Shown here: positions 2,474-60,365 of the stretch, piece by piece
How the letters are laid out: each line of letters starts with the position of its first letter
Numbering within the stretch: the first letter of the stretch is position 1
Source: a virus
Length of the DNA stretch: 64,000 bases
Reading direction: 5' to 3' (one strand)
Virus record (IMG/VR): IMGVR_UViG_3300011005_000053
Made by a program: the position numbers and the translations under genes
The notes under the pieces: model-generated
What the model saw: the letters and a program-made list of their open reading frames with translations, nothing else
Database searches by the model: none
What the model was told of the DNA's origin: nothing

Positions 2474-4249
2474 TCAAAAATTCAAATTAGAAACCAATAA
2501 CGGCGCGTCCTCAAACGCACCCTCATCATCATTTAACATATCACGCGCCATCAGGCTGCCAAAGTATGCACCCATTTCAACAGAGCTCCAACGGTCCTTT
2601 GTGTTGTTACCCTGCTCAAACACGCGGATCAAACCGGTACTCGGGGCTCGGTCATACTGCAGCGTCGCAATCTCAGAGATCATAAGCATCGTCTCAAGAT
2701 ACGGCGCCTCATAACGCAGACGCACATCCGGGTCGATCGTCTTGTTATAGTCCGGAATAAACCGTCTGATTTCGTCCAGACCGTCGTCCTTCGGGATCAG
2801 GAACTCGATCGTCTTCTCCATAAGCATGGCCTTGAACGACATAGTCATCTCGGCATTCAGTTTGTTAGAAGCGTTAATAATAAACAAACACTCTTCTGCA
2901 TTAGGATTGTTGACACGCGCCGCAACCACTGGGTCATTCATACATCTTACCGGCGCATACTCCACGCCGCGATCAGGGTCAGCTAAGACCCTCGCCAGTG
3001 TGTCTACGATAGAAATTCCTATATTACGTCCGTCAACTACAAAGTATTGAGCTCCAAAATCGTGCCTGAGCTGTTGTAGTCGGACAGCTTGTGCACGGAT
3101 CTCTGTCCCTTTGAAAGCTTCAAGATACACAACCTGTACACGATAGAGCTTATGCCCGTCGTCTCCGACATCCGGCAGCAGCCGCATCAGCGAGAAGGCG
3201 CTGTTGTCGTTGCCGGATCGGTTCACAGCGGCAAAGTCCGCCGCCACAATCCGTATCTCGCCGTCCTGTTTTTGGATTGGGTTCAAAAGCTTGGCCTTTG
3301 TGACGAACTCATCTGTCGTCTTCGGGTAAAATGGTCTCGCGATAACCTGCCGGTTTCGCAGCTCCGCATACGTGAAGAACGACATGGACCCCTGCCGCAT
3401 CATGATGTTGTCGTATTCCGTCATACGCGTGATCGGGTCGGCGTCTCGGTACGCCGTAATCATCTGCTTGCGCGTACGGATTCCGTGTTTCAGGCAGATT
3501 GCGTAGTCCAGCGCAAAGAAGACCGAACCGTCTCCGTTCAGCATGCCGCGCATAGCGTTGACCGAAGCTTTCGACAACCAGTGCTGATCGTCCGTGCTGC
3601 TGGAGATCTGTATCTGCACTGGTTCCTCCACGAATTCCTTACGCCCATTGAACTCCGGCAGTCTTGCAAACTCCGGCTGTCTTGAAATCAGGAAGGGGAC
3701 AATGACCTTCTTCACGACTTCGCCGTCGTCCAGAATGTTGCGCCCCTCGTCGATCACGATGACGTGAGCACGATGTCCTCGCGCGGAGTCAGCCAGCGTA
3801 ACGATCTCGACGAAGCTTCCGTTGCGAAACGTCACCGACGTCTCGATTTGGTTATCCTTATAGCTCTTAATCTCGCGCCGCAGCATAGGAGACCACTCGC
3901 ATAACTCCTTGATGATCTTCTCCGATATGATCAGCGACGCCTGTTTACGCGTCGAACTGGCAATGATGACGTGTGTACCGGGGTATAAGATGCACCGGAT
4001 CACGCAGTACACAGCCAGAATAAAGCTCTTGGCCGCCGCTCGACTGGCCTCAATGATGGCGTTATCGGACTGAAAAAGTCCCCACAAAATGATCTCTTGG
4101 TACGGAAAAAGTTTAATTTTTAAGTATAATCTGGCAAAAATATGTGGATTTTTTCGAAAAAACTGGTTCCAATCGAGAAAAGAATGCAAATGACGTGTAT
4201 CGGCCAGCCATCCTGACATATTGGATGCCAGTTGCTGCTCATTCGCCAT
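2474..4249 (-). CDS. terminase large subunit
   Basis: 591 aa. Walker A-like IIEASRAAAKS and Walker B VIVIDEG in the N-terminal ATPase region, with a long C-terminal nuclease-like region. RBS GGAGGAAGAG precedes the ATG. Adjacent to the portal. Confidence 0.85.
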   Translation of the reverse strand: MANEQQLASNMSGWLADTRHLHSFLDWNQFFRKNPHIFARLYLKIKLFPYQEIILWGLFQSDNAIIEASRAAAKSFILAVYCVIRCILYPGTHVIIASSTRKQASLIISEKIIKELCEWSPMLRREIKSYKDNQIETSVTFRNGSFVEIVTLADSARGHRAHVIVIDEGRNILDDGEVVKKVIVPFLISRQPEFARLPEFNGRKEFVEEPVQIQISSSTDDQHWLSKASVNAMRGMLNGDGSVFFALDYAICLKHGIRTRKQMITAYRDADPITRMTEYDNIMMRQGSMSFFTYAELRNRQVIARPFYPKTTDEFVTKAKLLNPIQKQDGEIRIVAADFAAVNRSGNDNSAFSLMRLLPDVGDDGHKLYRVQVVYLEAFKGTEIRAQAVRLQQLRHDFGAQYFVVDGRNIGISIVDTLARVLADPDRGVEYAPVRCMNDPVVAARVNNPNAEECLFIINASNKLNAEMTMSFKAMLMEKTIEFLIPKDDGLDEIRRFIPDYNKTIDPDVRLRYEAPYLETMLMISEIATLQYDRAPSTGLIRVFEQGNNTKDRWSSVEMGAYFGSLMARDMLNDDEGAFEDAPLLVSNLNF

Positions 4250-31175: not shown

Positions 31176-31252
31176 GCTGGCGTGGCGCAATTGGCAGACG
31201 CACCGGACTTAAAATCCGGTTTCTGCGGGTTCGATCCCCGCCGCCAGTACCA
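31176..31252 (+). tRNA. tRNA with anticodon TAA and a short (class I) variable loop; atypical for a Leu-reading tRNA
   Basis: Hand fold. Acceptor GCUGGCG/CGCCAGU, anticodon arm CCGGA-CUUAAAA-UCCGG, T arm GCGGG-UUCGAUC-CCCGC, CCA encoded. Confidence 0.55.
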
Positions 31253-36774: not shown

Positions 36775-37134
36775 ATGATTCAGATCCGGCGCGGTGTCTT
36801 TGAAACGAACAGCAGTTCGACCCACTCCATCACGATGTGTATGAAATCGGACTTTGATGAGTGGAAAAATGGTCATATTTACTATAATGAGGGCTATCCC
36901 AGCAAACAATTTATGCAAAAAGACGAAGCTTTTGAGCTTTTGAGAAGCGATAAGTGGGATCCTGTTTCGGAACCTGAAAAGTTATCGGAGGACGAGCTTC
37001 TGGCAATTATGCGCGAACACGAAATCTATACGTATGACACGTATTATTACGAGTACCTGGAATGGTATGACGACTCGTTTACGACGCCGTCCGGCGAGAC
37101 GGTGGTAGCATTCGGCTGGTACGGCCACGACTAA
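36775..37134 (+). CDS. hypothetical protein, paralog B (N-terminal MIQIRRGVFETNSSSTHSI; Tyr/Asp/Glu-rich)
   Basis: Same N-terminal motif as 36222-36773. Confidence 0.55.
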   Translation: MIQIRRGVFETNSSSTHSITMCMKSDFDEWKNGHIYYNEGYPSKQFMQKDEAFELLRSDKWDPVSEPEKLSEDELLAIMREHEIYTYDTYYYEYLEWYDDSFTTPSGETVVAFGWYGHD

Positions 37135-37146
37135 GGAGGAATTTGG

Positions 37147-38028
37147 ATGAAAGTTCTCGGCTCTTATCAAAATGGCAACTATTCCGTAACCATCTGGGAT
37201 GACGGCACCAAGGTAAGGCAAACGTGCGGTACCGCTTTTGAGCCGACGAAGCCCGAATCCATGGATCTCAAAATCACAAACCGCTGTGATATGGGTTGCC
37301 CCATGTGTCACGAAGATTCCACGCCCGGCGGCGCCCACGGCGATATCCTGAATCTTCCGTTTCTGGATACGCTGCTGCCGTACACAGAGATTGCCATCGG
37401 CGGCGGCAACCCGCTGAGCCATCCAGACCTGACGCAGTTCCTGCGGCTTCTGAAATCAAAACGGCTGATCGCCAATATGACGGTCAACGCCGCGCATTTC
37501 ATTCGGGACTTTGACCGCATTAAGCAGCTGTCGGACGACGGCTATATCCACGGTCTGGGCGTGTCTGTCACGTACATGACCAACGATCTGCTGGATAAAC
37601 TGCGCCAGATCCCAAACGTGGTACTGCACGTGATCAACGGCGTGATTACAGTCGATGAACTCAGGATGATGTATGACAAGGGACTTAAGCTTTTGATCCT
37701 CGGCTACAAGGATTTTCGTCGCGGCGTTGCGGCGCATAAACCGGATACTGACCTGAATATGGCCCATCTGTACGCGGAACTTCCGGAGCTCGTAAAACAT
37801 TTTGAGGTCGTGAGTTTTGACAATCTGGCGATTCGTCAGCTCGACCCGAAGCGCCTGATGAGTGAAGAGGAATGGAATGAATTCTATATGGGCGACGACG
37901 GTCAGTTCACGATGTACGTGGACGCCGTTTTCAGAGAGTTCGCCAAAAGCAGTGTGTCAACCGAGCGTTGGCCGCTGATGGACGAGATCGAGCCTATGTT
38001 CCGGCTGGTCCGAAACGAACAGAGATAA
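37147..38028 (+). CDS. radical SAM enzyme (CxxxCxxC)
   Basis: LKITNRCDMGCPMCHE cluster and a GGGNP glycine-rich segment. No SPASM Cys cluster. TAAGGAGGAATTTGG then ATG. Confidence 0.6.
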   Translation: MKVLGSYQNGNYSVTIWDDGTKVRQTCGTAFEPTKPESMDLKITNRCDMGCPMCHEDSTPGGAHGDILNLPFLDTLLPYTEIAIGGGNPLSHPDLTQFLRLLKSKRLIANMTVNAAHFIRDFDRIKQLSDDGYIHGLGVSVTYMTNDLLDKLRQIPNVVLHVINGVITVDELRMMYDKGLKLLILGYKDFRRGVAAHKPDTDLNMAHLYAELPELVKHFEVVSFDNLAIRQLDPKRLMSEEEWNEFYMGDDGQFTMYVDAVFREFAKSSVSTERWPLMDEIEPMFRLVRNEQR

Positions 38029-38029
38029 C

Positions 38030-38340
38030 AGAAATAAATTGCGGTGGCGGAATAGACATATTTGCGTTGAGGTACTTAACAGAAAACCGGCCCATGGATC
38101 AGGGCGCAGGAATGGCATTGAGTGAAAAGGCAAATATGGTAAAGGCGGCTGATGCGCACAGCGCCGGACAGTTAATCCGGATAAGCCAAGAGTAGACGCA
38201 TAGTTGACGGTCTCAGGCTGACGTGAGGAAGGGGTTCGAGTCCCCAAGTCTCCGGGTTCGACTCCCGGGGGCGCAAGGTGCAATAACGTCAGTATGCAGG
38301 GTGCAAATCCCTGCCCGCAATTTTATACACACAACAAAGT
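38030..38340 (+). other. 310-bp non-coding region with two tandem tRNA T-arm-like hairpins and an anticodon-arm-like hairpin (tRNA-like element or pseudo-tRNAs)
   Basis: GGGGTTCGAGTCCCC at 38231-38245 and CCGGGTTCGACTCCCGG at 38252-38268. CCGGA-CAGTTAA-TCCGG hairpin at 38165-38181. CTGACGT and ACGTCAG flank the region. I could not fold a canonical cloverleaf. Confidence 0.35.
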
Positions 38341-38356
38341 TTAAGGAGGTGACCCA

Positions 38357-38629
38357 ATGCCAGAAAGATTGAAATATGAATTCAATGAAGTGCGCCGCCT
38401 GTTGGTATCGCTGCTGCGCCGTGATATGGAAGAAGATGGCGAGACTGCTGATGAGGAACCGTGTCAACTGATTCCGTCTTGTGACACGGAAAATGATGTA
38501 TACCATCTTACGCTGGCGTATCACGTCGGGCCGGAACCGCGAGAAGTGGTATGGCACGGCGACTCGTGGGAGGATGTTCTGCAGAAATGTAAGGCCGACG
38601 TTGTGCGTCGGGCCTTTCAATTGCTTTAA
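38357..38629 (+). CDS. hypothetical protein
   Basis: TTTAAGGAGGTGACCCA then ATG. Confidence 0.55.
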   Translation: MPERLKYEFNEVRRLLVSLLRRDMEEDGETADEEPCQLIPSCDTENDVYHLTLAYHVGPEPREVVWHGDSWEDVLQKCKADVVRRAFQLL

Positions 38630-38714
38630 CGCGACCTGAAAGTAAAAGGAGGGCGGTACCATTTTAGTTGATCCTAAAAAAATACAGGAAGCGAAAGAAA
38701 AACTCGGCGACGAG

Positions 38715-40595
38715 ATGGCTTTGATGATCCGCGACGAGTTGGAAATCGAAGATTTTGACGAGAGAAATTTGAAGTGCTGCTGCCCGTTTCATAATGAAGA
38801 CCATGTGTCTTTCATCTGGAACCCGAAATCGCTCAGTTTCCATTGCTTTGGGTCGTGCGGCCGCAGTTATGACATCATCGACATCTATATGCATAAGGGC
38901 CTGACCTATCTGGAAGCTTGCGACAAGCTCTTTCAGACGGCGAAGATCCCATATACCTTCGGCGAGCGCAAAGTCAGAACGAAACGCGCTTACCGCTATC
39001 CGAAAGAAGTGATCTGTACGGACAAAACACAGGTGTATCACTACCTGTCACTCCGTAAGATCAGCCCGGAAACAGCGGATTACCTTGACATTCGACAGGA
39101 CGAAGAGGGGAATTGCGTGTTCAACTACTACGACGCCAACGACACGCTGACCATGGTGAAGTATCGTCCGTCCCACAGAATCGAAAAGGGACAGTCAAAA
39201 AACTGGTGTCAGGAAAACGCGGACACGGCGCCGATCCTCTTCAATATGAACCGCATCAACCCGGATCAGCCGCTTCTGATCTGCTCCGGAGAGCTGGACT
39301 GCGCGGCAGCCGTGGAAGCCGGATGGAAAAACGCTGTGTCGATCCCGCTCGGAGATCAGAACCTCCATTGGGTGCAGGAGTGTTACGACTGGCTCGAACA
39401 GTTCCAGAGTATTATCATCTGTCCGGATAACGACGAGTCGGGAACTAAGTACCAGAAAACGGTCGTGCCGATGCTCGGCGCATGGCGCACCAAAACGATC
39501 CATCTGCCGACCACGGTTATCAACAAACGCGGCGAAGAACAACCCCTAAAAGACCTGAATGAGCTCCTGTATCACAGCGGCAAAGAAGCCGTGATCGACG
39601 CCATCCTCTCGGCGGAAGACAGCCCCGTGGCCTCTGTCGTGGATCTGTCCGAGATACAGGCGACCGATTATGAAGATGTGGATGGGGTGCAATTCGGTCT
39701 CAAGCCTCTGGACGACAACCTCCTTCGTCTGTTTTTCGGAACCCTGACCGTTATCTCCGGCCGACCCGGTTCCGGTAAGAGCAGTTTGATCTCCCAGCTT
39801 GTGTGCAACGCTCTTGACCAGGGTATCAATACCTGGCTCTACAGCGGCGAACTGCCCAACTCCGTAGAAAAAAGCTGGTTCAATTACATATTTGCAGGGC
39901 CGCGCAACGTGGAAGATTCCGTATCCACACGCGGCGACGCCTATAAACGCATCACAAACAAAACGATCGCGGCCATCAACGAGAAATATAAAGGCCGTTG
40001 GTATATCTACCGCGACGACGGCGATAACACTCTCGACAGTCTGCTGGATTCCATGACGAATTCGGTACGCAAGTACGCAACGAAGCTGCTGATCCTCGAC
40101 AACTTCATGTGTATCGACACCGAGAATAGCGATAGCGAGCTGAAAGCGCAGACCGACACTATTAAAAAGCTTATCCTCTTTGCCCGCCGATACGATTGCG
40201 CCGTAATTCTTGTGGCGCACCCGCGAAAGCTCTCCACAAAAGACGGCGGCGCGGAAATCGGCCTCGACGATATCGCCGGCACATCGAACATAGCCAATCT
40301 GGCCCACCGTACAATCTCCATGCGCCGCGTGACCGACGCCGACCGTGACAATGCGGCACGCTTTTCTCCACGCCGCCGGGCTCTGCTGGGCTGCGATGTG
40401 CTTGTAACGATTCTGAAAGACCGCATGTTCGGTCGCTCCAATATTGAGCTCGGCCTGTACTACGACCCGGCGTCACGCCGCTTCTTTTCCGACGATGAGG
40501 AATACGATCATCAGTATTTATGGGATACCAATCTTTATGACGGCTGCCTGAGCAGCGGTCGCAACTATGACGCAGAGGAGGTGTTCGGCGATTAA
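38715..40595 (+). CDS. primase-helicase (zinc-binding plus Toprim plus DnaB-like ATPase)
   Basis: CCCPFHNEDH...FHCFGSCG zinc finger. Toprim LLICSGELD...IIICPDNDESG. Walker A GRPGSGKSS and Walker B LLILDNF. Possible ATT start at 38661 after AAAGGAGGG. Confidence 0.8.
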   Translation: MALMIRDELEIEDFDERNLKCCCPFHNEDHVSFIWNPKSLSFHCFGSCGRSYDIIDIYMHKGLTYLEACDKLFQTAKIPYTFGERKVRTKRAYRYPKEVICTDKTQVYHYLSLRKISPETADYLDIRQDEEGNCVFNYYDANDTLTMVKYRPSHRIEKGQSKNWCQENADTAPILFNMNRINPDQPLLICSGELDCAAAVEAGWKNAVSIPLGDQNLHWVQECYDWLEQFQSIIICPDNDESGTKYQKTVVPMLGAWRTKTIHLPTTVINKRGEEQPLKDLNELLYHSGKEAVIDAILSAEDSPVASVVDLSEIQATDYEDVDGVQFGLKPLDDNLLRLFFGTLTVISGRPGSGKSSLISQLVCNALDQGINTWLYSGELPNSVEKSWFNYIFAGPRNVEDSVSTRGDAYKRITNKTIAAINEKYKGRWYIYRDDGDNTLDSLLDSMTNSVRKYATKLLILDNFMCIDTENSDSELKAQTDTIKKLILFARRYDCAVILVAHPRKLSTKDGGAEIGLDDIAGTSNIANLAHRTISMRRVTDADRDNAARFSPRRRALLGCDVLVTILKDRMFGRSNIELGLYYDPASRRFFSDDEEYDHQYLWDTNLYDGCLSSGRNYDAEEVFGD

Positions 40596-45902: not shown

Positions 45903-46209
45903 TAAATATCTGGGATTTGTCGATCGGTATTTAAGCGACGAAGAGCTCGCCGCCTTCTACAGCGATCTTACGTTTAATCGCTTCGATCTGTTCCGAAACG
46001 AATATCTGCTCCTCACAGATATTGATGGCAACACGATCGATACATACCGCTGGAACGGCGAAACGCATGTCCGCGTTCCGACCAAGCAGATCAAAACCAG
46101 ATATCTTGGTACGATCCGCCCCCGCAACCCGCAGCAGGTATGCGCGATCGATATGCTTTACAACACGGATATGACCGTCAAAATGCTACAGGGGCCTTTT
46201 GGCTCGGGT
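45895..46209 (+). CDS. phoH: PhoH-like ATPase, exon 1 (ends within Walker A GPFGSGK)
   Basis: IRPRNPQQVCAIDMLYNTDMTVKMLQGPFGSGK matches the PhoH N-terminus and P-loop. The reading frame then falls into an insertion. Start TTG at 45889 or 45895. Confidence 0.6.
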
Positions 46210-47324
46210 AAAATCTTGCCCCGCCGCGCGGCAACGCTCGGTTGACAATCTTGTAAATTGCTGGAACACCCTGAGAGCCGCACAGACCACAGCGTGAGGA
46301 TGAAACGCCTGGGCGCGATGGTGTGAAAACAGTGCGGATTGGGCAATCAGCAGCCAAGCCCCGAATAGGGGAAGGTTCAACGACTATCCATAAGGAGTAG
46401 GGCGCAAGCCCGAAAAACAAGACGACCCGATATATTGCCATTAAACAACGGGAGGTGAAAGAGTGACAAAGAGGACATGGACACAAGAGCAGGTTGACGA
46501 CATTGTTCATATGTATACCGTCCAGCGCTGTACACAAAAAGTGATCGCGGCAAAGTATAGCGCCAAAGTACAAACTATCAGTGGCATCCTAAAAGCTCAT
46601 AACGTTTCTATCAACTATCGCAAGGGCGCAAATCGCCATATGAACGATCAGTATTTCGATGTAGTTGATTCTGCTGAAAAGGCGTACTTCTTGGGATTAT
46701 TATTAACCGACGGAAGCGTGATTTATGATGCTGAGCGCATTAGGCAGCCAGAAATCAGCATTGAGCTTATAGAGAGTGACGTCGAGATCTTGCACAGACT
46801 GCGTGACGCGATCGGGTTGAGCACCAAGCTGTGCTATGCAAAGCGAGCAGGCAGAAAACATGGTACATATACTCTGAAATTTCGATCGGCGCACATGGCG
46901 TCTACTCTTGCTGCTTATCATATCGTGCAAGATAAAACCCATCGCGTTCGCGTACTGCCACAAAATATCCCCGAACAATATATGAAAGATTATGTTCGTG
47001 GATTAATTGACGGTGATGGCAGTATTTATTTTAGCCAAGGGTCATGGCACATCAATTATTGCGGTCACTTTCAATCACTGGTACGCGATGTCGGAAATGT
47101 GTGCTGCAGCATGATCGGGAGAGATGCACCGCTCAAAATCCAGGTGAGCGATAATGTATACCGTATAACGTTTAATGGTGCGTGGGCACAAAAATTGGCG
47201 TCGGCGCTTTATGATAACGCAGATATTGCAATTGCTCGTAAATACCGTTTGGCAATAGCGGCAATGCGAGGATAATAGGGTCGAAGATATAGTCTAACCC
47301 TCGCCGAAAGGCGAGGTAGCAGTG
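46210..47324 (+). mobile_element. group I intron in phoH carrying a LAGLIDADG homing endonuclease
   Basis: The 5' exon ends ...TCGGGT (U). A GCCC(C)G guide-like element follows the junction. GACTATCC at ~46400 and ATAGTC at ~47288 are P7-like strands. The intron ends in G. Exon 2 has no RBS. Junction positions are approximate. Confidence 0.55.
46463..47275 (+). CDS. LAGLIDADG homing endonuclease
   Basis: Two motifs, YFLGLLLTDGS and VRGLIDGDGSIY. AT-richer codon usage. Confidence 0.75.
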   Translation: MTKRTWTQEQVDDIVHMYTVQRCTQKVIAAKYSAKVQTISGILKAHNVSINYRKGANRHMNDQYFDVVDSAEKAYFLGLLLTDGSVIYDAERIRQPEISIELIESDVEILHRLRDAIGLSTKLCYAKRAGRKHGTYTLKFRSAHMASTLAAYHIVQDKTHRVRVLPQNIPEQYMKDYVRGLIDGDGSIYFSQGSWHINYCGHFQSLVRDVGNVCCSMIGRDAPLKIQVSDNVYRITFNGAWAQKLASALYDNADIAIARKYRLAIAAMRG

Positions 47325-59185: not shown

Positions 59186-60304
59186 ATGAAGTGCAAAGCT
59201 TGCAAACGCAAGATCGACGATAATTCTATCTTTTGCAATTGGTGTGGCGCCAGACAGGTCAAGGAAGAACAAGTGATCAAGATCCCGGAGCCGAAAAAAC
59301 TGGCAAGCGGGAAGTGGAATGTCTATCTGCGGGCGGAAGGGCAGAGCGTAACGGAAGACACCAAAGAGAAGTGTATCACGAAAGCAAGAGCGATCCGCGC
59401 AGGATTCTTGGAAGCCCAAAAGAGTGCGCCAAAGCTGACAATGGCAAAGGCAATCGAGAGGTACATTGCCGAGAATGACGCCGTGCTGTCTCCCGGTACG
59501 ATACGCGGGTACTTAGAAATAGGCCGCAATCGTTTCAAACCATATCATGATAAAGAACTGTCGTCTGTGAATTGGCAGGCGGCCATTAACCGAGAAGCAA
59601 AACTGTGCGGGCCGAAGACGCTCAAAAACGCTTGGGGTCTCGTTGCCCGTGTCATGCGCTGCAATCACATAACGCCGCCTGATGTCAGGCTTCCACAGGT
59701 AGTACCGACAGAACGTCCGTGGCTGAACTATGAACAGGTACTGCGGTTCGTGGAGGAGCTGCGGGGGACTCCGTGCGAATTTGCCGCGCTGCTTGCGCTT
59801 CATTCTTTGAGGCGTTCAGAGCTGCTTGCTATCACACCGTCCAAGATACGTGAAGACGGTATTCATGTCAGCGGATCGATGGTCATAGACCGCGACAACA
59901 ATCTTGTTGAAAAGAAAGCAAACAAGAACACTGCGTCAACACGCGTCGTTCCGATCATGATCCCGCGCCTGCAGGAGCTGATTGACGCGTCAGATAAAGG
60001 CCCTGACGAACCTTACGTTGACATTCGGTTCAATAAACTTTATAATCATATCAATACGGTGTGCAGACACGCCGGCCTGCCGGAGGTTGGCGTTCATGGA
60101 TTAAGAAGATCCTTTGCGTCGCTTGCCTACCATCTCGGGTGGCAAGAGCGTAAAACCATGGCGATTGGCGGATGGGATGATTGGGAGACTATGCATAAAA
60201 TATACATCCATCTCTCCTCAAAAGACCTGTCCGAAGCCGCCGATTCCATGCGTGCGTTTTACACATTTACAGACAAAATTACAGACGAATCCGCAAAGCC
60301 TTGA
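59186..60304 (+). CDS. tyrosine integrase C with N-terminal zinc ribbon
   Basis: CKACKRKIDDNSIFCNWCG. Catalytic HSLRRS and HGLRRSF, and the Tyr region. Its 3' end abuts an attP-like tRNA fragment. Confidence 0.8.
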   Translation: MKCKACKRKIDDNSIFCNWCGARQVKEEQVIKIPEPKKLASGKWNVYLRAEGQSVTEDTKEKCITKARAIRAGFLEAQKSAPKLTMAKAIERYIAENDAVLSPGTIRGYLEIGRNRFKPYHDKELSSVNWQAAINREAKLCGPKTLKNAWGLVARVMRCNHITPPDVRLPQVVPTERPWLNYEQVLRFVEELRGTPCEFAALLALHSLRRSELLAITPSKIREDGIHVSGSMVIDRDNNLVEKKANKNTASTRVVPIMIPRLQELIDASDKGPDEPYVDIRFNKLYNHINTVCRHAGLPEVGVHGLRRSFASLAYHLGWQERKTMAIGGWDDWETMHKIYIHLSSKDLSEAADSMRAFYTFTDKITDESAKP

Positions 60305-60330
60305 TTTTCAACGTGTTTGTGGCACGAAAA

Positions 60331-60358
60331 ACAGGTTCGACTCCCGTACCCTGCTCCA
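60331..60358 (+). other. attP-like core: 3' fragment of a tRNA gene (T arm plus acceptor plus CCA)
   Basis: ACAGGTTCGACTCCCGTACCCTGCTCCA has a T loop (TTCGACT), a 7-nt acceptor strand, a discriminator and CCA, but no 5' half. It sits immediately downstream of the integrase. Confidence 0.5.
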
Positions 60359-60365
60359 TACGTTG

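Follow-up and report, generated by a model that had tools for sequence, protein, structure and literature searches.

A predicted 284-nt tRNA-Leu-like phage RNA that joins a scaffold family with a twin T-arm module

This report concerns a gap between genes in a viral DNA of 64,000 nucleotides (nt), IMG/VR record IMGVR_UViG_3300011005_000053, the whole of which is referred to here as the window. The gap (38029-38356, 328 nt) appears, from comparison with other phages, to hold a single structured RNA gene of ~284 nt on the + strand (38038-38321). This interval is accounted for by two RNA families that are absent from Rfam: a scaffold family resembling transfer RNA (tRNA) and described by the covariance model R1, and a twin T-arm module described by the model R2. 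The original prediction, which had been made from the letters of the window, had proposed a tRNA-like element or a novel noncoding RNA at this place, and the proposal stands, since the interval is matched end to end by two covariance models built from other phages. As far as structure and family are concerned, we regard this reading as near-certain on the strength of the sequence comparisons given below.

The pattern of T-arm motifs in the gap exceeds what is expected by chance. The motif GGTTCRANTCC was found three times in the 64-kb window against 0.25 expected, a count that was reached in 0 of 100 shuffles, and two of the three copies sit in the gap, 22 nt apart. The sequence features pointed out earlier were recovered, namely the two T-arm hairpins 6 nt apart (T-arm 1, GGGGTTCGAGTCCCC, 38231-38245; spacer AAGTCT; T-arm 2, CCGGGTTCGACTCCCGG, 38252-38268), the 7-nt long-range pair CTGACGT/ACGTCAG (38218-38224 and 38286-38292) and the anticodon-arm-like hairpin CCGGA-CAGTTAA-TCCGG (38164-38180), which has the same stem as the anticodon arm of the tRNA(UAA) (31203-31219). 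Three features had been overlooked: a third T-arm-like hairpin, GCAGGG-UGCAAAU-CCCUGC (38296-38314); a 7-bp terminal helix, AUUGCGG/CCGCAAU (38038-44 and 38315-21), which closes the whole element; and a tRNA-Leu-type D-arm (38045-38056 and 38188-38199). The minimum free energy (MFE) structure of the single sequence suggested one enclosed molecule, in which the terminal helix AAAUUGCGG/CCGCAAUUU surrounds the third T-arm-like hairpin (z = -1.9). Left unconstrained, this fold agreed with the comparative model in 41 of 47 base pairs, and enforcing all the family helices gave -98.4 kcal/mol versus -102.2 kcal/mol for the unconstrained structure.

Relatives of the element were sought by motif. Viral contigs were scanned for two T-loops lying 8-18 nt apart, and the locus L087 was found to be homologous to the whole element of the window, with which it shares GUGGCGGAAUAGACA (5′-end) and GGUGCAAAUCC (3′-end). 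A scan for TGGCGGAATAGACA uncovered a large family, of which GGUGCAAAUCC is the hallmark and whose members share one order of parts. From the 5′-end, a 7-nt strand is followed by UG, GCGGAAUAGA, a first hairpin (hpA) of variable length with the base CA/UG, the junction GUAAA and a second, variable hairpin (hpB); after hpB come AAUAGUAGACGC, a variable region, an invariant AU, a 6-bp stem with the loop UGCAAAU and finally a 7-nt 3′ strand. The variable region is 32-199 nt long, often opens with a CUUAY-AAN-GUAAG mini-hairpin and is closed by a helix of its own.

An alignment (A1) was made of 24 non-redundant viral members, from which the window and L087 were excluded. It is clear from A1 that the 25 pairs of the scaffold are maintained: 95.7% of cells were paired, versus 32-42% when the 3′ partners were slid, compensatory changes were observed in 18 of the 25 pairs, and no shuffle reached the observed covariation. 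R1 was built from A1, and cmsearch with this model matched the window at 38038-38321 (+) with 79.5 bits over model positions 1-164 of 164 (E=3.9e-16; the E-values of R1 and R2 come from a shortened calibration and are rough). No other match to R1 was obtained in the 64 kb. When 105 distinct sequences were aligned to R1, 95.8% of cells paired and compensatory changes were seen in 21/25 pairs, in an alignment that was fitted to R1 and hence leans towards the model. The acceptor, D, hpA, hpB and T helices thus all have covariation support in the family, and the window forms every pair of R1 except the innermost two of hpB. The invariant blocks are also present in the window (UGGCGGAAUAGACA at 38045-58, UGGUAAA at 38137-43, AGUAGACGC at 38191-99 and AU plus GGUGCAAAUCC at 38294-38310), with a single difference from the family consensus among them, AAGAG for AAUAG. 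The covariation rules out a pseudo-tRNA array or a degraded remnant.

The length of hpA varies across the family. In the window, hpB contains GCUG-AUGCGCA-CAGC as well as CCGGA-CAGUUAA-UCCGG (38164-38180), the anticodon-arm-like hairpin already mentioned. The interior of hpB is variable, and that hairpin is absent from L087, the closest homologue found, and is not a conserved feature of the family; its identity with the anticodon stem of tRNA(UAA) may reflect a local duplication.

The second model covers a region between the D-arm and the scaffold T-arm. About twenty loci were found to share with the window the arrangement GUGAAGCGG-T1-AAAC-T2-GUGCAnGGUGCAAAA, with a helix of differing sequence around each. 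The module is a 75-nt three-way junction in which a 6-bp helix, P1, leads into a UGA-rich junction, the first T-arm (T1; 4-bp stem, loop UUCGAnU), AA and the second T-arm (T2), which has a long stem (8-10 positions in the homologues, counting one internal mismatch in some) and the loop UUCGACU; T2 is followed by a mini-hairpin, (U)GC-nGG-GC(A), an A-rich strand and P1′. P1 showed perfect 6-nt complementarity in 16 of 18 homologues, its sequences being unrelated, and the stems of T1 and T2 covary. R2 was built from 14 stand-alone modules of other phages, and it matched the window at 38217-38293 with 74.4 bits (E=1.6e-22) over positions 1-75 of 75 without any non-canonical pair.

The module was found inside a scaffold only in the window, L087 and L351; it stands alone in at least 16 loci, and such stand-alone modules occur in phage tRNA arrays. 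In most loci, the module is preceded by a hairpin with a CGG-containing loop, which takes the form of an 'nCGGn' loop ahead of stand-alone twin modules. The hairpin at 38204-38216 is its counterpart in the window, and the stems of the equivalent hairpins covary in L042, L070, L071, L080, L093, L103, L111 and L119. Each canonical T-loop has a GG-containing loop nearby, as in the D-loop/T-loop elbow of tRNA, and we infer by this analogy that the T-loops may dock with the nearby GG loops. It was also observed that one stand-alone module, that of L093, has a ROOL RNA (2902-3497, 273.8 bits) ~2.3 kb downstream in the same phage tRNA region.

The frame itself points to tRNA-Leu. The sequence UGGCGGAAUAG...GUAGACGC is invariant and matches a tRNA-Leu-type D-arm: U8, G9, G10-C25, C11-G24, G12-C23, G13/A22, A14, A15 and A21 are of the class II tRNA-Leu type, and the scaffold RNA shares this type of D-arm with the window's own tRNA(UAA). 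Judged by position, the family bases would correspond to U8, A14, A15 and A21 with the AU at the U48 position, and the U of this invariant AU is probably U48, the partner of A15. Some variants have no insertion; an unbroken D-loop, GGAAUAGGUAGAC, is present in copy 2 of L087, and its equivalent, CUGGAAUAGGUAGACAG, with a covarying D-stem, is present in Paenibacillus phage API480. Since these variants keep an intact loop, hpA-GUAAA-hpB is to be seen as inserted into the D-loop at G18/G19. In addition, a 7-bp acceptor stacked on the T-arm, together with U8, A14, A21 and U54/C56/A58, agrees with a canonical tRNA. With regard to the tRNA(UAA) gene itself (31176-31252), ARAGORN called it Leu, yet it has a 5-nt variable loop and is class I-shaped, unlike bacterial tRNA-Leu with its long variable arm.

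There are also departures from a decoding tRNA. The T-stem has 6 bp, not 5, which gives a 13-bp acceptor/T stack, and G occupies position 55. In 75% of members, pair 1:72 is either U-A or A-U. Conservation is lacking at the discriminator (A 42, U 27, C 19 and G 5 of 93 members; U in the window), and CCA is not among the commonest triplets at positions 74-76 of these 93 members, positions that are A/U-rich. The window encodes no CCA after the scaffold, and all four genuine tRNAs of this phage encode it. No anticodon arm (5-bp stem, 7-nt loop, U33, purine 37) follows the D-stem in the window; instead, a hairpin of 4 bp closed by a 5-nt loop (38204-38216) is followed by the twin module, and the homologues have at this place unrelated sequence or a triloop hairpin of 4-5 bp. 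The RNA therefore seems not to decode codons. Among the options listed in the original prediction, a tRNA with an insertion came closest, and hairpins are indeed inserted into the D-loop; beyond this, the anticodon and variable arms are replaced by the 75-nt twin T-arm domain. The parts of the element are collected in Table 1.

Table 1. Parts of the predicted tRNA-like RNA in the window
Feature	Position	Strand	Support
Whole tRNA-like RNA gene, 284 nt	38038..38321	+	Full-length R1 match
Acceptor-like stem, 5′ strand AUUGCGG, partner 38315-38321	38038..38044	+	7/7 pairs compensatory in the family; in the MFE structure
U8-G9, D-stem 5′ strand GCG (38047-49), 5′ part of D-loop GAAUAGA; within UGGCGGAAUAGACA	38045..38056	+	Invariant in 24/24 of A1
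hpA, first D-loop-inserted hairpin, base CAUAUUUGC/GCAAAUAUG, 9 bp	38057..38138	+	C-G and A-U base pairs conserved, next pairs covary
Junction GUAAA, hpA to hpB	38139..38143	+	UGGUAAA nearly invariant in A1
hpB, second D-loop-inserted hairpin, base GGC/GCC	38144..38187	+	5/5 modelled pairs covary
AAGAGUAGA and D-stem 3′ strand CGC (38197-99), family consensus AAUAGUAGACGC	38188..38199	+	GUAGACGC invariant in A1; D-stem 100% paired
Hairpin UUGA-CGGUC-UCAG, GG-containing loop	38204..38216	+	Constrained fold
Twin T-arm module, three-way junction	38217..38293	+	R2 match
P1 5′ strand CUGACG, partner CGUCAG 38287-38292	38218..38223	+	6/6 complementary pair, same place, 16/18 homologues
T-arm 1, GGGG-UUCGAGU-CCCC	38231..38245	+	4-bp stem, two pairs covary, loop invariant
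T-arm 2, 9-bp stem GUCUCCGGG/CCCGGGGGC, loop UUCGACU	38248..38272	+	5 pairs covary
Mini-hairpin GCA-AGG-UGC (GG loop), then AAUAA; consensus GUGCAnGGUGCAAAA	38273..38286	+	Conserved block; GCC/GGC in L042 covaries
AU before T-stem	38294..38295	+	Invariant in A1
Scaffold T-arm, 6-bp GCAGGG/CCCUGC, loop UGCAAAU, G at 55	38296..38314	+	5/6 pairs covary, 99.5% paired
Acceptor-like stem, 3′ strand CCGCAAU, then UUUUAUAC	38315..38321	+	No CCA encoded

Searches for known RNAs agreed with the earlier statement that neither a canonical cloverleaf nor a transfer-messenger RNA (tmRNA) can be folded here, as ARAGORN and Rfam give nothing in the gap. ARAGORN called four tRNAs in the window, none of them at 38030-38340, and no tmRNA. 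At gathering thresholds, Rfam 15 returned for the window four tRNAs and a group I intron (46200-47316) and nothing in the gap; at E<=10, the region 37950-38420 gave three noise matches only (a snoRNA, mascRNA on T-arm 2 and isrK) and no RF00005. The mascRNA match was the sole tRNA-like near-match in Rfam (14.4 bits, E=4.7). Likewise, no tRNA or tmRNA was found in the homologues by ARAGORN and the Rfam tRNA and tmRNA models. The window had no match to the Rfam tmRNA families, which gave local matches in L087 only, to isolated T-arm hairpins (13 bits; gathering score 47). No match was obtained when 37000-39500 was compared by blastn with 50,697 GenBank phages, and an exact 38-mer spanning both T-arms had 0 matches in viral contigs. 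Two further candidates were rejected. A tmRNA acceptor with G3-U70 and a tag open reading frame (ORF) were sought by eye and none was found, pair 3:70 of the window being U-A; a tRNA split by a group I intron was dismissed, as RF00028 matches 46200-47316 and nothing at 38030-38340 even at E<=10. A weak Rfam match to DUF805b was observed in L087 (11755-11790, -) on hpB+AAAGAGUAGAC, with 13.9 bits versus a gathering score of 35.6 (E=0.43). The DUF805b consensus, AAGGcGGAA...gCCUuAAaAGAGUAGGcA, resembles the scaffold GUAAAG-hpB-CAAUAGUAGAC, a likeness of sequence that could be a shared tertiary motif or chance.

In the window, the gap comes after a radical-SAM gene (37147-38028) and before a 90-aa ORF (38357-38629), whose start at 38357 is preceded by an AAGGAGG ribosome-binding site; within the gap itself there are mechanical ORFs only. 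Downstream of the 90-aa ORF come a primase-helicase gene and then a Pol III alpha gene, all on the + strand, and upstream of the gap lie genes for a Sak-like annealing protein, an exonuclease and the radical-SAM protein, so that a replication module surrounds the element. No promoter-like or convincing terminator-like site was found around it, and it is therefore probably inside a polycistronic transcript. Relatives were also sought through this locus. The primase-helicase led to 38 IMG/VR loci (about 65% aa identity), in which the upstream gene differs and there is no such gap. The closest radical-SAM relatives, with at most 71% identity, are also without the element. In both sets (the 38 primase-helicase loci and the radical-SAM loci L039-L041), nhmmer and motif scans for the element were negative and synteny differs. 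Since the nearest homologues of the primase and radical-SAM genes come without it, the element does not belong to any conserved replication cassette. A specific link with the replication genes is not supported on this ground, and also because the homologues of the RNA have no conserved neighbour: when 301 flanking ORFs were clustered, no protein family was common to more than 3 of 38 members.

The scaffold family is large, and all the counts given here are lower bounds. A regular-expression census found at least 93 distinct members of 101-334 nt (median 200), and R1 gave at least 106 matches at E<=1e-6. When 185,579 species-representative genomes were scanned, at least 62 full-length R1 matches were obtained at E<=4e-14, two of them cut at the locus edge. 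By record title, nearly all are assemblies of Clostridia, Lachnospiraceae, Oscillospiraceae, Clostridium, Ruminococcus, Lawsonibacter and Bacilli, host assignments that rest on the binning of metagenome-assembled genomes (MAGs). Of the pattern matches outside Bacillota, R1 matched three, all in MAG contigs: those binned as Muribaculaceae (L322) and 'Bacterium' (L320), one match each among the 62, and one binned as Alphaproteobacteria (L294, weaker, 45.4 bits). One isolate, Flavonifractor plautii ATCC 29863, carries a member in a prophage, at L350 463-632. Pattern matches in Flavobacterium, Chitinophaga, Flavihumibacter, Paracoccus, Acidobacteriaceae and Mycobacteriaceae were discarded, as they gave no R1 match; those of Flavobacterium faecale and Paracoccus had no family blocks beyond the search pattern.

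Reduced members were identified in two GenBank phages. The copy of Paenibacillus phage API480 (L281 2923-3031; MK533143.1 22793-22901, minus strand) falls between API480_29 and API480_28, where nothing is annotated. The copy of Dulem virus 33 (L280 2928-3028; PP511792.1 37184-37284) lies under a coding sequence annotated as "hypothetical protein", XCD07596.1, which is probably a mis-call.

Some members lie close to tRNA genes. Of 60 genomic members, 15 have a tRNA gene within 300 nt, in every case on their own strand, and the gap between the two is just 0-13 nt in four (L302, L298, L347 and L332). Tandem copies also occur, three in L087, two in L163 and four in L226. In its genomic setting, the family thus seems closer to the genes of a tRNA cluster than to a leader. 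The 85 variable regions compared fell into 63 sequence clusters, the scaffold blocks being invariant, and this suggests that the payload is interchangeable. The tandem array of L087 (11363-11854, -; R1 scores 41, 66 and 76 bits) has genuine tRNAs on both sides, and it was observed that one of its copies is without the D-loop insertion and that one has the twin T-arm payload. A few smaller regularities were also noted. A payload module, G(G/A)AGUCGUCGCUGAAAUAG(A/U)GCUGGCA(C/U)UUC, recurs in L179, L196 and L273, the inserts being otherwise different, and single T-arm-like hairpins recur in the payloads or hpB of L282, L286, L302 and L328. Just 3′ of the RNA, a GC-rich conserved element, AAAUAUGCCGCCCCGCAGUUGCAGGAGACGGGGGCGG, followed in some cases by AACGCAUGGCGGGGUAAUCUCCCGCC, was seen in L169, L214, L216, L224, L237, L187 and L350; it could be a terminator or a further structured RNA. 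Odd "tRNA-???" calls of ARAGORN with a 2-nt anticodon abut scaffold RNAs with 8-nt gaps in L298 (1449-1519) and L347 (6279-6349), and similar calls were given in L139, L126 and L169.

Taking the above together, we lean, though with confidence not far above even, towards the reading that 38038-38321 (+) is one non-decoding, tRNA-Leu-derived, tRNA-like RNA that acts as a stable tRNA mimic in trans. The RNA would be transcribed with the surrounding + strand replication genes and excised by the host tRNA-maturation enzymes, with RNase P cutting at about 38038 and RNase Z or exonucleases acting just after 38321-38322. Cleavage of members by RNase P and RNase Z and the addition of CCA are indirectly suggested by those which abut same-strand tRNA genes with the very short gaps mentioned above. 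The tRNA-like frame is proposed to protect the RNA, which would therefore accumulate as a stable species. Acting in trans as a tRNA mimic, the three T-loops and the nearby GG loops would then present tRNA-elbow-like surfaces that titrate or recruit a factor recognising T-arms or elbows, for which tRNA processing or modification enzymes and tRNA-directed defence nucleases are candidate partners. This elbow-decoy step is the weak one in the proposal and is purely conjectural.

Several points weigh against this reading. The discrete RNA and its ends are predicted from comparison and thermodynamics. The predominance of U-A or A-U at pair 1:72 and an acceptor/T stack of 13 bp, not 12, are both untypical of RNase P substrates. 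The element would seem dispensable for the primase/radical-SAM gene module, since phages with the closest homologues of these genes lack it. Moreover, a strong ribosome-binding site and ATG follow 35 nt after the end of the RNA, and several other members lie 15-35 nt upstream of an ORF, which fits a role in cis.

Such a cis role is the alternative that has to be weighed most carefully, and we consider it improbable but by no means negligible. Here the element would be part of a messenger RNA, either as processing "punctuation", where a cut by RNase P or RNase Z produces the 5′-end of the message for the 90-aa ORF and primase-helicase, or as a regulator of translation in the 5′ untranslated region of that message, and the excised RNA would be functionless. 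The 35 nt from the end of the RNA to the ATG at 38357 with its AAGGAGG, the probable location within a polycistronic transcript with no promoter-like or convincing terminator-like site nearby, and the many homologues and several stand-alone twin modules that are followed by a ribosome-binding site and ATG at a distance of 10-50 nt are all in line with it. However, the downstream genes are unrelated among the members, in a quarter of the genomic members the gene before or after is a tRNA gene and not an ORF, and tandem copies exist; a cleavage signal needs far less than an invariant D-loop junction, a special T-loop and elaborate payloads, and nearness to the next ORF is in any case expected in compact phage genomes. 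An aminoacylatable molecule, trimmed at its 3′-end, provided with CCA and charged for a non-decoding use (as in tmRNA or as an aminoacyl donor), is in our view unlikely. Bacterial leucyl-tRNA synthetase (LeuRS) reads the tRNA core and A73, not the anticodon, and CCA-less tRNA genes are normal in Bacillota; LeuRS is the candidate enzyme because it ignores the anticodon, and the invariant tRNA-Leu-type D-arm and the conserved bases at the A15 and U48 positions speak for it. On the other hand, the discriminator is variable, no CCA is encoded, pair 1:72 varies and there is no G3-U70, the insertion in the D-loop presumably disrupts the G18-G19 spacing that LeuRS reads, and neither a tag ORF nor a match to a tmRNA model or an ARAGORN tmRNA was found. 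The 13-bp acceptor/T stack also tells against this reading, such a stack being an antideterminant for EF-Tu in the selenocysteine tRNA, tRNA-Sec.

The remaining two explanations are far less probable. A replication element, that is, a structured origin or a tRNA-like primer RNA beside the primase-helicase gene, would suit the location inside the replication module; we hold it to be very improbable, as the homologues are not tied to replication genes, the covariation keeps an RNA-type pairing of one strand, including G-U pairs, and related phages with the same primase lack the element. Debris, by which is meant decayed tRNA genes or tRNA 3′ fragments left by attachment-site (att) events, has in its favour that phage integrases target tRNA 3′-ends and that the window bears such a fragment beside the integrase (~60325-60360). 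The integrase is 21 kb away, however, and two full-length covariance matches, pervasive compensation and invariant blocks foreign to tRNA are incompatible with neutral decay, so that this explanation is scarcely credible. The gap was also considered as a remnant of the phage attachment site attP, and this was rejected because the real candidate attP sits at ~60.3 kb beside the integrase, 21 kb from the element.

If the favoured reading of a stable tRNA mimic in trans is extended to the whole family, one arrives at a natural "tRNA scaffold" system in phages of gut Clostridia and Bacilli, in which a tRNA-Leu-derived chassis is processed and stabilised by the host and carries swappable payloads (at least 63 types) acting as decoys or sponges, the twin T-arm "double elbow" of the window being one of them. 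This broader idea is offered as a tentative one, and we think it rather doubtful. Were it true, the payloads would decoy host factors or tRNA-recognising immune nucleases and would amount to an RNA-based toolkit for counter-defence or host takeover that annotation pipelines do not see.

Some other features of the window and of the loci were recorded along the way. A tyrosine integrase gene (PF00589) at 59186-60304 is directly followed by a tRNA 3′ fragment at ~60325-60360, which consists of a T-arm (ACAGG-TTCGACT-CCCGT), the acceptor strand ACCCTGC, T and CCA, and after it comes a hairpin with a T-run. The integrase and the fragment together resemble an attP core, and the phage is therefore probably temperate, integrating into a host tRNA gene. 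The group I intron at 46200-47316 (RF00028, 69.7 bits) contains a 270-aa ORF (46463-47275). A second, different candidate family of ~90-nt RNAs with two T-arms, GGGAGAGCACCUUGGUGGUGAGCACGACGGUGUUAGAGGCGGUUCGAUUCCGUCCUUUGGCAAUGGUGGUUCGAUUCCACCUUCUCCC, whose ends are complementary like an acceptor stem, was seen in phage tRNA arrays at L048, L050, L074, L076-L079, L083, L086, L089, L096 and L097, and further at L106, L109, L137, L151, L155 and L158.

When compared with known systems, tRNA-Leu (class II) is the nearest relative, probably as the ancestor of the scaffold RNA and not as the same family. Both have a 7-bp acceptor, U8-G9, a GCG/CGC D-stem with G13-A22, the D-loop AAUAG...GUAGA, the AU and U54/C56/A58; the scaffold RNA differs in having no anticodon arm, a 6-bp T-stem, G55, two D-loop hairpins, no CCA and a variable discriminator. 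The tRNA-like domain of tmRNA is alike in its paired ends, which form an acceptor beside a T-arm, and in the large insert that stands in place of the anticodon arm, but the scaffold RNA has no G3-U70, encoded CCA, tag reading frame or series of pseudoknots. The species 1 and 2 RNAs of phage T4 (rnaC and rnaD) are also stable phage RNAs (119-139 nt) in a tRNA cluster, and rnaC has a T-arm and acceptor at its 3′-end. They were rejected as homologues, as they have no GGCGGAAUAGAC, no UGCAAAU T-loop and no twin module, and R1 found nothing in L279; to our knowledge, their function is still unknown. The t-elements of plant mitochondria and MALAT1 mascRNA are tRNA-shaped, non-decoding structures excised by RNase P and RNase Z. 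They are small (about 60-80 nt) and minimal, whereas the scaffold family measures 101-334 nt and has conserved insertions and payloads.

YrlA and other bacterial Y RNAs are likewise non-decoding, have a tRNA-like module of T-arm and D-arm and are sometimes encoded by phages (PMC4201824). In YrlA the terminal helix binds Ro and the tRNA-like part is internal, whereas here the termini form the acceptor. A Pfam scan of the flanking genes (radical SAM, 90-aa ORF, primase-helicase) found no TROVE/Ro60 domain, and there was no match to a Y RNA of Rfam. ROOL and GOLLD are structured RNAs of phages and prophages, of unknown function, that often lie beside tRNA genes (PMC5737381); they are 500-800 nt long and form multimeric cages (PMC12286853), and they have no homology with the scaffold family. 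No description of this family was found in Rfam 15 or by full-text searches of the literature on phages, tRNA-like RNAs, tRNA mimics and ROOL/GOLLD. Fremin et al. (2023) report unnamed candidate tRNA-like phage RNAs (PMC10690425), a work that comprises 10,006 csRNA models, and the family may be among these. Judged against Rfam 15 and the literature searched, the family itself appears to be undescribed, and a family of this size outside Rfam points to a new class of viral tRNA mimics.

Non-decoding RNAs of tRNA-like form (tmRNA, Y RNAs, T4 species 1 and 2, mascRNA) are few, and each has been instructive on how the shape of tRNA can be exploited. The scaffold RNAs are common in phages and prophages of Bacillota, many of them gut or faecal, with more than 100 distinct members, carried by at least one bacterial isolate and at least one cultured phage among others. 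In the two GenBank phage records inspected, their loci are blank or probably mis-called as a hypothetical protein, and R1 and R2 could be used to annotate them. In the engineered tRNA scaffold of Ponchon and Dardel, a foreign RNA is reportedly grafted in place of the anticodon arm, and the chimera is processed and stabilised like a tRNA; we know of no description of a natural counterpart. The family has the same layout as this man-made system, a constant frame with 63 clusters of payloads, its processing and stabilisation being predicted here. With its constant frame and swappable payloads, it resembles a natural form of the engineered tRNA scaffold and offers a handle on the RNAs of phage "tRNA regions".

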